This document shows positions 39,081 through 45,861 of a stretch of DNA of 64,000 nucleotides, in pieces. The notes beneath the pieces are model-generated. The model ran no database searches and had not been told where the DNA came from. It saw only the letters and a program-made list of their open reading frames with translations. Where the stretch lies: the NCBI RefSeq assembly GCF_057098645.1, contig NZ_CM169472.1; one strand, written 5' to 3'. Numbering within the stretch: the stretch's first letter is position 1; the number at the start of each line of letters is the position of its first letter. Made by a program: the position numbers and the translations under genes.

Positions 39081-40011
39081 AGAGCTTCCTTTTGGTGTCG
39101 CCTTCCCAGGCGTCTGATATGCTTTTGTGCAACAGTGAGTCAGAACTTACATCTGACTCACTGATAGTAAAGTCTGTTTGAACTCTTCAGGCCTTAAGTA
39201 AACGACTCGACGTTTTAACTGGCCTGGCTTTGAGGCGCAACATACTACACTATCTTTATGGTTAAAGCTTGTTTCGATTAACATCAGCTTAATTACCAGC
39301 CACCACCGCCTCCGCCACCCGCGCCGCCAGCACCACCACCGGAATAACTTCGCCCCAACAAACTGGTATTGGCCCCCAGACTCAGGTGCATCTGTAATGA
39401 GAACAAAACGCCACTACGGGCAATTTCCGGGGCACTAACAGCCGCTGTGAGTGATGGGGTGATACGTGCGACCCATTCTCTTCCAAGGTTTGCTGAGACT
39501 GCCCAACCTAGCAACGCGTAATCCAGTTTCCGTGTTTCCCCTTTCCGCCGCCGCCCACTGTGTGTTGCTGCCTCTTTACGCGCAAGATAGTTAACGATAG
39601 CTTCACCGTGGGCATAACGTTGCTGCCCAGTTTGGGTAAACTTTGGCAGAAAAATATACCCCATACCAGTGAGATAACCGGTCAGGAAAACAGCGCTAAA
39701 ATAACCCGCTGGCATATACCAGTAAAAGAATACATCTCCGACATTGATATAGAGAGAATAAAAGGCCACGCCTGAACAAATCAGCGGTAAAAACAAAGTG
39801 ATGATGGCACGATTAACGCAAGGCTTGTCATCATCGCGGGCAAACAAAAGCTCAAGGGAACAAAATAAAAAAGGAAGAAGCCAGCAGATCATAATAAACA
39901 TATCGCCCACCAGACTCATTCCTGCCCAGCCTACAGGACTCAGGTTACCGTAAAGAATGAACCGCCCCGGGAATCCTGGAGACTAAACTCCCTGAGAAAG
40001 AGGTAAACAGG

Positions 40012-40338
40012 ATGACTAAAAATACACGTTTTTCCCCCGAGGTCCGTCAACGGGCAGTTCGTATGGTTCTGGAAAGTCAGGGCGAATATGACTCACAATG
40101 GGCGGCAATTTGTTCCATTGCCCCAAAGATTGGCTGTACACCAGAGACTCTGCGTGTGTGGGTTCGTCAGCATGAGCGGGATACCGGGAGTGGTGATGGT
40201 GGACTCACCACCGCTGAACGTCAGCGTCTGAAAGAGCTGGAACGTGAAAATCGTGAACTGCGCCGCAGTAACGATATCCTTCGCCAGGCTTCCGCTTATT
40301 TTGCGAAGGCGGAGTTCGACCGCCTCTGGAAAAAATAA
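40012..40338 (+). CDS. IS629 OrfA (HTH transposase subunit)
   Basis: 108 aa [19 protein letters not shown]..., leucine zipper C-terminus. Confidence 0.9.
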
Positions 40339-41225
40339 TGCCGCTGCTGGATAAGCTGCGTGAGCAGTACGGGGTCGGACCGGTATGCAGTGAACTGCAT
40401 ATTGCCCCGTCAACGTATTACCACTGTCAGCAACAGCGACATCATCCTGATAAACGCAGTGCCCGTGCTCAGCGCGATGACTGGCTGAAGAGAGAGATAC
40501 AGCGCGTATACGATGAAAATCACAAGGTATACGGTGTGCGTAAAGTCTGGCGTCAGTTGTTACGGGAAGGTATCAGAGTGGCCAGATGCACTGTGGCACG
40601 TCTCATGGCGGTTATGGGACTTGCCGGTGTTCTCCGGGGTAAAAAGGTCCGTACTACCGTCAGCCGGAAAGCCGTTTCCGCAGGCGACCGCGTAAACCGT
40701 CAGTTCGTGGCAGAACGTCCTGACCAGCTGTGGGTGGCTGATTTTACTTACGTCAGCACATGGCAGGGCTTCGTCTATGTGGCGTTCATCATTGATGTGT
40801 TTGCCGGATGTATCGTGGGGTGGCGAGTCTCATCGTCTATGGAAACGACATTCGTGCTGGATGCACTGGAGCAGGCGTTGTGGGCCCGTCGGCCGTCCGG
40901 CACAGTCCATCACAGTGATAAAGGTTCTCAGTATGTATCACTGGCCTATACGGAGCGACTAAAAGAAGCAAAACTGCTGGCATCAACAGGGAGTACAGGT
41001 GACTCGTATGACAACGCGATGGCGGAGAGCATCAATGGTCTTTACAAAGCGGAGGTAATACACCGTAAGAGCTGGAAAAACCGTGCAGAAGTGGAACTGG
41101 CCACACTCACGTGGGTGGACTGGTATAACAATCGACGATTGCTGGGAAGGCTGGGTCATATCCCTCCGGCAGAAGCAGAAAAAGCTTATTATGCTTCCAT
41201 CAGAAACGATGATCTGGCAGCCTGA
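40338..41225 (+). CDS. IS629 OrfB (DDE integrase-like catalytic subunit)
   Basis: 295 aa in the overlapping frame; rve/DDE domain. Confidence 0.9.
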   Translation: MPLLDKLREQYGVGPVCSELHIAPSTYYHCQQQRHHPDKRSARAQRDDWLKREIQRVYDENHKVYGVRKVWRQLLREGIRVARCTVARLMAVMGLAGVLRGKKVRTTVSRKAVSAGDRVNRQFVAERPDQLWVADFTYVSTWQGFVYVAFIIDVFAGCIVGWRVSSSMETTFVLDALEQALWARRPSGTVHHSDKGSQYVSLAYTERLKEAKLLASTGSTGDSYDNAMAESINGLYKAEVIHRKSWKNRAEVELATLTWVDWYNNRRLLGRLGHIPPAEAEKAYYASIRNDDLAA

Positions 41226-42525
41226 GTTCACAGATAAAACACTCTCCAGGAAAACCGGGGCGGTTCAGAATGACCGCCAATATTGCCAGTCCACCCCATT
41301 GCAAAAACGTATCAGGCCGGTAAAACGAAGACTGTTTACGCGGCAGATAAAATTTCTGCATCCGTAAAAATGCCCTGCGTAAGACTCTGTTGCGTCTCCC
41401 CGTAAGAACGACCTTATCGCCTTTACGAAATAACGCTTCCAGTAATAACTGTTCTGCGGGCAGTAATACCGCATTATTTCTGGTCACGCCTTCATTAACA
41501 CGAATCAGGATTTGCTGGTTCTTGTCAGACTGATCTTCCAGATGAATTTTTCCTTTCACAATCAGATTTACGATATCGGCACAAAAACCTTTATCGTCGT
41601 AAACCAGCTTCGCATCGAGACGTAACATGCCGGGCGTGTAATCTGGCGGAATGACATCGGTTTCAATCACATCTACCGGCGTAAATTGCGGCCTGCGCTT
41701 CCAGAGATATAACCATCCACAAACCAGGAATAGACACGGAAACCAAATTAACAACGATGACGTGGAGGGTAAAAGAAGATGGCTGAAAATATTCGTCGTT
41801 TGTGGAGTCGGGGCATTGCTAAGTAACGAGTGAGGCCAACGGTAGAGTACCGTAAAATCTTCACGATAAAACGGATCGCTGGATTCAATTCTTCCGTCCT
41901 CAAGGATGCGGCCATTTCGATATGTGTCGCCCTCTTCTCCAGTAAAGAGATCGATTTCGCTAAATGGATTACCCGCGATATCAGGGAACTTGAGTGAAAA
42001 TCGGGTCTTATAGATTTCAAACGGCCAGTGGTTACCAGTCACGTTCCAGATTAACAGATCTGAATCTCCCTCACGCAGGAAAGCATTTTTAACCTGATAA
42101 TGAATTTGATAATGATAGTCGCCTTGAGGCAAGAAACGTTGTTTATCGCCCACGACAATACTCATTAACCCGATATGCCAGTCATGATGCCAGGGTTCAG
42201 GAATACCATCACGGGTGACGCCAACAATATGATAGTTCAGCAGTGTAGCGTCCCCATCAGGCTGCATCCAGAGTCGTGGTAAATCACGATAAAAGCCGTG
42301 CTTAATCTGCTGATTTCGCGCCTGAAAATGAATATTTTCTTTGATGTCGAACACCCCATCCGGTTGCAGAGTGGCTTCAACATCAAAGAGCGAGATCCCT
42401 TCTTCATAAGAAGGGATCTCCGTGTTTTCTGCATAACTTAGAGATGATACAAACAGCCCTGCTATCAACAGCAAAATGCAGCGAAACTTCCCTGCCATAG
42501 TCTTCCATCCGTGGAACGCAATTTA

Positions 42526-44099: not shown

Positions 44100-44136
44100 T
44101 TGACAATTAATCATCGAACTAGTTAACTAGTACGCA
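44100..44136 (+). promoter_or_regulatory. trp promoter with TrpR operator
   Basis: TTGACA (44100-44105), 17 bp spacer, TTAACT (44123-44128); operator palindrome cgaactagttaactagtacg overlaps the -10. Confidence 0.9.
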
Positions 44137-44162
44137 AGTTCACGTAAATAAGGGTATCGACA

Positions 44163-44207
44163 ATGAAAGCAATTTTCGTACTGAAAGCTTGGTGGCGCAC
44201 TTCCTGA
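44163..44207 (+). CDS. trpL: trp operon leader peptide
   Basis: 14-codon ORF [14 protein letters not shown] with tandem Trp codons. Confidence 0.9.
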   Translation: [14 protein letters not shown]

Positions 44208-44249
44208 AACGGGCAGTGTATTCACCATGCGTAAAGCAATCAGATACCC

Positions 44250-44278
44250 AGCCCGCCTAATGAGCGGGCTTTTTTTTG
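44250..44278 (+). terminator. trp attenuator (3:4 terminator hairpin)
   Basis: agcccgcctaatgagcgggct followed by tttttttt, about 20 nt before trpE. Confidence 0.9.
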
Positions 44279-44298: not shown

Positions 44299-45861
44299 AT
44301 GCAAACACAAAAACCGACTCTCGAACTGCTAACCTGCGAAGGCGCTTATCGCGACAATCCCACCGCGCTTTTTCACCAATTGTGTGGGGATCGTCCGGCA
44401 ACGCTGCTGCTGGAATCCGCAGATATCGACAGCAAAGATGATTTAAAAAGCCTGCTGCTGGTAGACAGTGCGCTACGCATTACAGCTTTAGGTGACACTG
44501 TCACAATCCAGTCCCTTTCCGGCAACGGCGAAGCCCTGCTGACACTACTGGATAACGCCCTGCCTGCGGGTGTGGAAAATGAACAATTACCAAACTGCCG
44601 TGTGCTGCGCTTCCCCCCTGTTAGTCCACTGCTGGATGAAGACGCTCGCTTATGCTCCCTTTCGGTTTTTGACGCTTTCCGCTTATTGCTGAATCTGTTG
44701 AATGTACCTAAGGAAGAACGAGAAGCCATGTTCTTCGGCGGCCTGTTCTCTTATGACCTTGTGGCGGGGTTTGAAGATTTACCGCAACTGTCAGCGGAAA
44801 ATAACTGCCCTGATTTCTGTTTTTATCTCGCTGAAACGCTGATGGTGATTGACCATCAGAAAAAAAGCACCCGCATTCAGGCCAGCCTGTTTGCTCCGAA
44901 TGAAGAAGAAAAACAACGTCTCACTGCTCGCCTGAACGATCTTCGCCAGCAACTGACCGAAACCGCGCCACCGCTGCCGGTGGTTTCCGTGCCGCATATG
45001 CGTTGTGAATGTAACCAGAGCGATGAAGAGTTCGGTGGCGTAGTGCGTTTGTTGCAAAAAGCGATTCGCGCCGGAGAAATTTTCCAGGTGGTGCCATCTC
45101 GCCGTTTCTCTCTGCCCTGCCCGTCACCGCTGGCGGCCTATTACGTGCTGAAAAAGAGTAATCCCAGCCCGTACATGTTTTTTATGCAGGATAATGATTT
45201 CACCCTGTTTGGCGCGTCGCCGGAAAGTTCGCTCAAGTATGACGCCACCAGCCGCCAGATTGAGATCTACCCGATTGCCGGAACACGTCCACGCGGTCGT
45301 CGTGCCGATGGTTCACTGGACAGAGACCTCGACCACCGCATCGAACTGGAAATGCGTACCGATCATAAAGAGCTTTCTGAACATCTGATGTTGGTGGATC
45401 TCGCCCGTAATGACCTGGCACGCATTTGCACCCCCGGCAGCCGCTACGTCGCCGACCTCACCAAAGTTGACCGTTACTCTTACGTGATGCATCTGGTCTC
45501 CCGCGTGGTCGGTGAGCTGCGCCACGATCTCGACGCCCTGCACGCTTACCGCGCCTGTATGAATATGGGGACGTTAAGCGGTGCGCCGAAAGTGCGTGCT
45601 ATGCAGTTAATTGCCGAGGCGGAAGGTCGTCGCCGCGGCAGCTACGGCGGCGCGGTAGGTTATTTCACCGCGCATGGCGATCTCGACACCTGCATTGTGA
45701 TCCGCTCGGCGCTGGTGGAAAACGGTATCGCCACCGTGCAAGCCGGTGCTGGCGTAGTCCTTGATTCTGTTCCGCAGTCGGAAGCCGACGAAACCCGTAA
45801 TAAAGCCCGCGCTGTACTGCGCGCTATTGCCACCGCGCATCATGCACAGGAGACTTTCTGA
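44299..45861 (+). CDS. trpE: anthranilate synthase component I
   Basis: 520 aa; chorismate-binding domain. Confidence 0.95.

Follow-up and report, generated by a model that had tools for sequence, protein, structure and literature searches.

The trp leader peptide gene (trpL) in a 64,000-nucleotide stretch of DNA from NCBI RefSeq assembly GCF_057098645.1 (contig NZ_CM169472.1; hereafter the window) encodes Ala at codon 9 where Escherichia coli K-12 encodes Gly, and this Ala-9 allele is a real, natural, ordinary and already catalogued E. coli polymorphism. We consider it very probable that the locus is a normal attenuator carrying a common, naturally segregating allele that was derived within E. 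coli. Translation of the window revealed a reading frame of 14 codons and a TGA stop (ATG AAA GCA ATT TTC GTA CTG AAA GCT TGG TGG CGC ACT TCC TGA), and no comparable reading was found when the reverse strand over trpL was translated. Codon 9 is GCT and is directly followed by Trp codons 10 and 11. In the RefSeq record of K-12 MG1655 trpL (b1265) codon 9 is GGT, which confirms the first-pass annotation: it had read Ala in the window, had given Gly for K-12, and had named an Ala in the K-12 reference as the observation that would speak against it. Direct alignment showed that a G to C transversion at 44188, the second base of the codon, is the sole trpL difference between the window and K-12. 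K-12 leader numbering places this base at nt 52, in the codon directly before the Trp codons (nt 54-59), and the change creates a HindIII site (AAGCTT) at 44185-44190. When we aligned 401 bp of the window with K-12, there were four differences in all, the other three being an upstream SNP, an extra T at 44149 and a SNP in trpE, and the sequences were identical from 44189 up to the trpE start. Since these are direct base-level comparisons of orthologous sequence, chance is not at issue.

The elements surrounding codon 9 are listed in Table 1. The K-12 trpL attenuator (Rfam RF00513) is the textbook model of ribosome-mediated attenuation, and the structural examination of the window revealed the same arrangement. 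The short reading frame with its tandem Trp codons is preceded by a Shine-Dalgarno sequence and has the trp promoter/operator on one side and trpE on the other; the trpEDCBA operon is intact, and in the list of open reading frames trpD, trpC, trpB and trpA continue undamaged downstream of trpE to 50829. The closest annotated genome shows the same layout, labelled rnm, trpL, Trp leader region and trpE. The -35 and -10 hexamers and the TrpR operator were assigned from the textbook E. coli trp promoter, and so was the transcription start. The extra T makes the leader transcript one nucleotide longer in the window (142 nt) than in K-12 (141 nt). The Rfam Trp_leader model RF00513 matched 44184-44277 at full length with 91.4 bits (E = 1.2e-19; gathering score 41); the 3:4 terminator hairpin corresponds to the paired columns of the model, and the variant base falls in its unpaired 5' flank, opposite a strongly conserved G. 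Both the 1:2 and the 3:4 hairpins appeared in all folds, and regions 2, 3 and 4 are base-for-base identical to those of K-12. The Rfam match and the identity with K-12 from 44189 to trpE also bear out the earlier statement that the tandem Trp codons and the attenuator terminator are intact.

When we compared the window with K-12 trpL (NP_415781.1 / WP_001700591.1) as a system, the promoter, the operator, the length of the reading frame, Trp codons 10 and 11, the 1:2 core, the 3:4 terminator, the U-run and the distance to trpE were shared. The differences are that K-12 has Gly9 (GGT) and lacks the T at +14, whereas the window has Ala9 (GCT), with nt 51-52 able to pair with nt 93-94. The 2:3 antiterminator alternative of K-12 has been established experimentally. 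This helix was not recovered as the equilibrium minimum free energy (MFE) structure in the ribosome-masked fold of the window leader, and its absence there is expected of a co-transcriptional structure. Judged from its sequence, the locus is a standard E. coli trp attenuator and should operate like that of K-12.

Table 1. Elements of the trp control region in the window (positions in the 64,000-nucleotide stretch).
Feature	Position	Strand	Evidence
trp promoter	-35 TTGACA 44100-44105; -10 TTAACT 44123-44128	+	identical to K-12 in alignment
TrpR operator palindrome ACTAGTTAACTAGT	44118-44131	+	overlaps the trp promoter; identical to K-12
trp leader transcript (attenuator RNA, rnTrpL)	44136-44277	+	begins at AAGTTCACG and ends with the T-run of the terminator
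Shine-Dalgarno AAGGG of trpL	44150-44154	+	read from the sequence
trpL leader-peptide reading frame	44163-44207	+	same peptide annotated as WP_001386774.1, 'trp operon leader peptide'
trpL codon 9, GCT (Ala)	44187-44189	+	alignment with K-12; allele counts
Tandem regulatory Trp codons TGG TGG	44190-44195	+	identical to K-12
1:2 hairpin (pause/protector)	44187-44230	+	ViennaRNA folds; core unchanged relative to K-12
3:4 intrinsic terminator (attenuator), AGCCCGCCTAATGAGCGGGCT then T8	44250-44277	+	identical to K-12; predicted in every fold
trpE (anthranilate synthase component I), 520 aa, intact	44299-45861	+	list of open reading frames

We counted the alleles in 5,426 complete E. coli genomes using 41-base queries centred on the variant base, a centring with which each 28-base megablast seed must span that base. 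The GCT (Ala) trpL was present in 325 genomes (~6%) and the GGT (Gly) trpL in 5,065, and approximately 31 genomes with a trp leader region matched neither 41-mer; further trpL alleles exist among these. Among the strains with Ala are O145:H28, O104:H4, O121, E. coli W and O169:H41-type ETEC, besides many unnamed ones, and the isolates came from humans, cattle, pigs, a baboon, rodents including a rock rat, water, and food including flour, on several continents. All O145:H28 genomes sampled carry Ala-9. Both peptides have RefSeq accessions, WP_001386774.1 for the Ala form and WP_001700591.1 for the Gly form, and the window peptide is identical to the former, which is the trpL translation in O145:H28 strain RM12761. 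The peptide and the trpL DNA of the window are identical to those of RM12761, O104:H4, E. coli W and O121, and the RM12761 leader is identical to that of the window from the start codon to trpE; these Ala-9 genomes differ from the window in lacking the extra T at 44149. Neither peptide string turned up in the literature searched, and a literature search on natural trp leader variation returned nothing relevant.

These counts also bear on whether the GCT codon could be a sequencing or assembly error, or an engineered HindIII site. The creation of AAGCTT by the substitution would fit such an origin, and so would several small indels relative to the nearest genome, two of them in homopolymer runs, which could mean imperfect assembly. 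But the identical base occurs in 325 independent complete genomes from varied hosts and sources, these include the O145:H28 strains to which the window is most closely related, and no vector or scar sequence flanks trpL codon 9. A sequencing error or an engineered site is thus ruled out by 325 natural genomes with the same base, and we give an artefact practically no probability.

For the outgroup comparison, leaders were scanned for TGGTGGCGCACTTCCTGA in one genome per species and the codon before this string was read. GGT (Gly) was found in E. albertii, E. whittamii, Escherichia sp. MOD1-EC7003 and the E. coli representative, and Gly (GGT or GGC) in most Citrobacter, Salmonella diarizonae, Enterobacter, Leclercia and Lelliottia. 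Ser precedes the two Trp residues in Cedecea, Dryocola, one Citrobacter and one Enterobacter representative, Arg does so in Atlantibacter and Lys in Mangrovibacter, and Ala was found at this position in none of the enterobacterial species representatives retrieved. Since the outgroups carry Gly, this is the ancestral residue in Escherichia and the change to Ala took place inside E. coli, and since the position holds Gly, Ser, Arg or Lys across enterobacterial leaders, it is not strictly constrained. The leaders of Salmonella (MAATFALHGWWRTS), Citrobacter (...LHGWWRTS), Cedecea (...NSWWRTS), Atlantibacter (...NRWWRTS) and Mangrovibacter (...SKWWRTS) share the WWRTS-stop ending with the window, and the trp leaders of other Enterobacteriaceae are likewise followed by a T-rich terminator, although their N-terminal halves differ. 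The base and residue before the Trp codons tolerate natural change, which fits the view that attenuation does not depend critically on the leader peptide sequence outside the Trp codons.

The first-pass annotation had further called Ala-9 a simple lineage marker, which would imply a single origin and vertical inheritance in one E. coli lineage. This stood in so far as Ala-9 is a minority polymorphism that is fixed in the O145:H28 clone and behaves as a marker there, but it failed beyond that clone: the allele is shared with O104:H4, O121, E. coli W and O169:H41-type ETEC, which together with O145:H28 represent unrelated lineages, as well as with the many unnamed strains, and its flanks are mosaic. 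When we compared haplotypes over 3 kb around trpL in 10 Ala sequences (the window included) and 8 Gly sequences, with 212 variable sites, the Ala base was found on very different flanking haplotypes on both the rnm side and the trpE side. The rnm-side haplotype of O104:H4, E. coli W and A39 is identical or nearly so to that of the Gly strains 95_0274 and O27:H7; for O104:H4 the upstream haplotype is identical to these two Gly strains and differs at many sites from that of O145. The O145:H28 genomes and the window, in turn, carry an rnm-side haplotype quite unlike that of O104:H4, W and A39. In addition, all four combinations of the codon 9 allele with polymorphic site 44135, 53 bp upstream, exist (the four-gamete condition). 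Since Ala-9 lies on different haplotypes and occurs in all combinations with 44135, it marks no single lineage; the single-origin marker is unsupported by the haplotypes of the 10 Ala and 8 Gly sequences, and we regard it as highly improbable. Seen through these haplotypes, Ala-9 is a long-standing polymorphism that recombination has moved between backgrounds; recurrent mutation is the less probable source. Such a mosaic pattern is reportedly what the classical trp-region studies of natural E. coli isolates by Milkman and colleagues would lead one to expect. For typing, Ala-9 may be of modest use as one SNP among many, and it is not lineage-specific. Among the 18 E. coli sequences compared, sites 44132 (A/G) and 44135 (C/A) are polymorphic; they sit beside the right end of the trp operator and immediately ahead of the transcription start, and represent natural promoter/operator variation.

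Folding with ViennaRNA predicted that C52 adds two pairs at the base of the 1:2 hairpin, across a U-U mismatch: G51-C94 (44187-44230) and C52-G93 (44188-44229), the latter with a probability of 0.70 in the Ala leader. The isolated 1:2 segment was calculated at -20.7 kcal/mol for Ala and -17.8 kcal/mol for Gly, making the Ala form ~2.9 kcal/mol more stable, and the MFE values of the full leader were -47.6 and -46.9 kcal/mol, respectively, only 0.7 apart. The 3:4 terminator and the 1:2 core helices were the same for both alleles. When the ribosome footprint over the Trp codons was masked, both alleles folded identically, by construction, because nt 52 lies under the ribosome. Transcription pauses near nt 92 of the trp leader, at which point nt 93-94 are not yet made. 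In these folds, the trpL Shine-Dalgarno segment GGGUAUC at 44151-44157 pairs with GAUACCC of region 3 at 44242-44248 (leader nt 16-22 with 107-113) in every full-leader equilibrium structure, and the same holds for K-12; to our knowledge this long-range pairing is not part of the classical attenuation model.

Under the attenuation model, when charged tRNA-Trp is plentiful the ribosome would reach the UGA and the 3:4 terminator would form, and when Trp is scarce the ribosome would stall on codons 10 and 11, region 2 would pair with region 3, and transcription would proceed into trpE. All that is predicted to differ with Ala-9 is the 1:2 hairpin, which would be slightly extended in RNA free of ribosomes. 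Since C52 lies under the footprint of the stalled ribosome and outside the core of region 1, the attenuation decision step should be unaffected. At most, the extra pairs might make basal termination marginally more frequent in untranslated leaders. The folding and comparative data agree in making functional neutrality of Ala-9 plausible, in line with the first-pass annotation, which had judged function probably unchanged.

It is also conceivable that Ala-9 is functional, altering basal attenuation or a trans role of the RNA or the peptide, and that selection maintains it in some lineages; the route would be the longer 1:2 hairpin, nt 52 of the released rnTrpL, or residue 9 of the leader peptide. 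It has been reported that E. coli rnTrpL destabilises dnaA mRNA and also affects sanA and mhpC (review PMC12612679), and in Sinorhizobium the trp leader peptide acts in trans (reviews PMC12612679 and PMC12310071). The rnTrpL/peTrpL systems, in Sinorhizobium meliloti and in the action of E. coli rnTrpL on dnaA, involve the same kind of locus as that in the window, with a released transcript that encodes a 14-aa peptide; the E. coli peptide, unlike that of Sinorhizobium, is not known to act in trans. We examined the rnTrpL:dnaA interaction by whole-molecule RNAduplex and cofold calculations followed by a short-window scan, an approach that is not strong evidence in either direction. The strongest compact duplex was formed by rnTrpL nt 54-80 with dnaA +29..+60 at -28.7 kcal/mol for both alleles, and long unconstrained duplexes that include nt 52 were 4-5 kcal/mol weaker with C52, although these are unrealistically long. 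A trans effect of Ala-9 through rnTrpL:dnaA is thereby not predicted.

In favour of a function, then, are the predicted C52-G93 and G51-C94 pairs with the stabilised isolated hairpin, the weaker long duplexes with dnaA, the reported regulation of dnaA, sanA and mhpC by rnTrpL (PMC12612679), the persistence of the allele in several unrelated backgrounds, and the strongly conserved G at the nt 52 position of the Rfam consensus. Against it, the compact dnaA site excludes nt 52 and has equal energy in both alleles, the full-leader MFE hardly changes, and the extra pairs need nt 93-94, which are untranscribed at the position-92 pause, and are impossible under a translating ribosome. Moreover, the residue varies among enterobacterial leaders, and an allele at 6% on mosaic haplotypes resembles a neutral, old E. 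coli polymorphism. Weighing these points, we regard a functional Ala-9 as very unlikely and prefer the reading of a normal attenuator with an ordinary segregating allele. For studies on the trans roles of rnTrpL and the leader peptide, it is still relevant that ~6% of strains differ at nt 52 and residue 9, among them the pathogens O104:H4, O121 and O145:H28 as well as strain W, which is used in industry.

Three rarer features were observed in the neighbourhood of codon 9, all overlooked by the first-pass annotation: the extra T, a substitution in TrpE, and two insertion sequences, which are described further below. The extra T at 44149 (GTAAA[T]AAGGGT) is located in the trpL 5' UTR at leader position +14, directly 5' of AAGGG and 39 bp upstream of the variant base of codon 9. 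According to the alignments and a 41-mer search, neither K-12 nor any O145:H28 genome has it, and a centred 41-mer found it in 1 of the 5,426 complete E. coli genomes, that of the Canadian pig isolate Res13-Sevr-PER07-33 (NZ_CP062811.1), which carries Ala-9 with different trpE and upstream SNPs; none of the 5,426 genomes combined the extra T with O145-type flanks. The extra T is probably real, since it is no change in homopolymer length and recurs in an independent assembly. The best duplex between the Shine-Dalgarno sequence and the anti-Shine-Dalgarno sequence was -6.4 with and without the extra T, and the accessibility of the start site was unchanged. When the canonical anti-Shine-Dalgarno tail was paired, the extra T gave one more U-A pair (-4.8 vs -4.2), and no change was found in the predicted leader fold. 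The predicted effects of the extra T are negligible.

The second feature is S346H in TrpE, in which codon 346 is CAC (His) for AGC (Ser) owing to a tandem two-base substitution at 45334-45335. It is the only amino-acid difference from the RM12761 TrpE, a centred 42-mer found it in 0 of the 5,426 complete genomes, and all 32 enterobacterial species representatives compared have Ser at residue 346. S346H is private to the window and may be an assembly error. Over 35.6 kb, ~15 small differences separate the window from its nearest sequenced relative, and a 1.2-kb stretch of trpL-trpE holds three of them, a clustering that might be due to selection acting on the synthesis of tryptophan or on its control. 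That Ala-9/C52, the T at +14 and TrpE S346H together retune the trp control region functionally seems to us very unlikely.

Over 36-56 kb, hardly anything separates the window from O145:H28 genomes such as RM12761, and over 35.6 kb the window and RM12761 differ by 10 SNPs, 5 small indels and two insertion sequences. Differences in homopolymer length from RM12761 occur at 24192 and 56657 (T7 vs T6 and A8 vs A7), and these may be genuine or may stem from misassembly of one genome or the other. The gene yciQ, encoding a DUF2207 protein, is interrupted by an IS3-family element of 1,310 bp at 39958-41267 with ends TGAACCGCCCCGGG..., flanked by a 3-bp GAA target duplication; the site is empty in O145:H28 RM12761, and by its ends the element is presumably IS629/IS1203-like. 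At ~39321, yciQ has further lost 3 bp of a CGC repeat, with the reading frame kept. An IS2 copy of 1,331 bp at 57937-59267, matching the annotation 'IS3-like element IS2 family transposase', lies between hypothetical genes in the region of the espM1/nleG effector island, with a 5-bp CTTAG target duplication and an empty site in RM12761. Beyond this IS2 copy, the sequence at 59268-64000 shows 97.3% identity with RM12761 (122 mismatches in 4.7 kb), and since the orthologous stretch of RM12761 belongs to the tail region of a prophage (gpJ and others), the two strains differ in this prophage.
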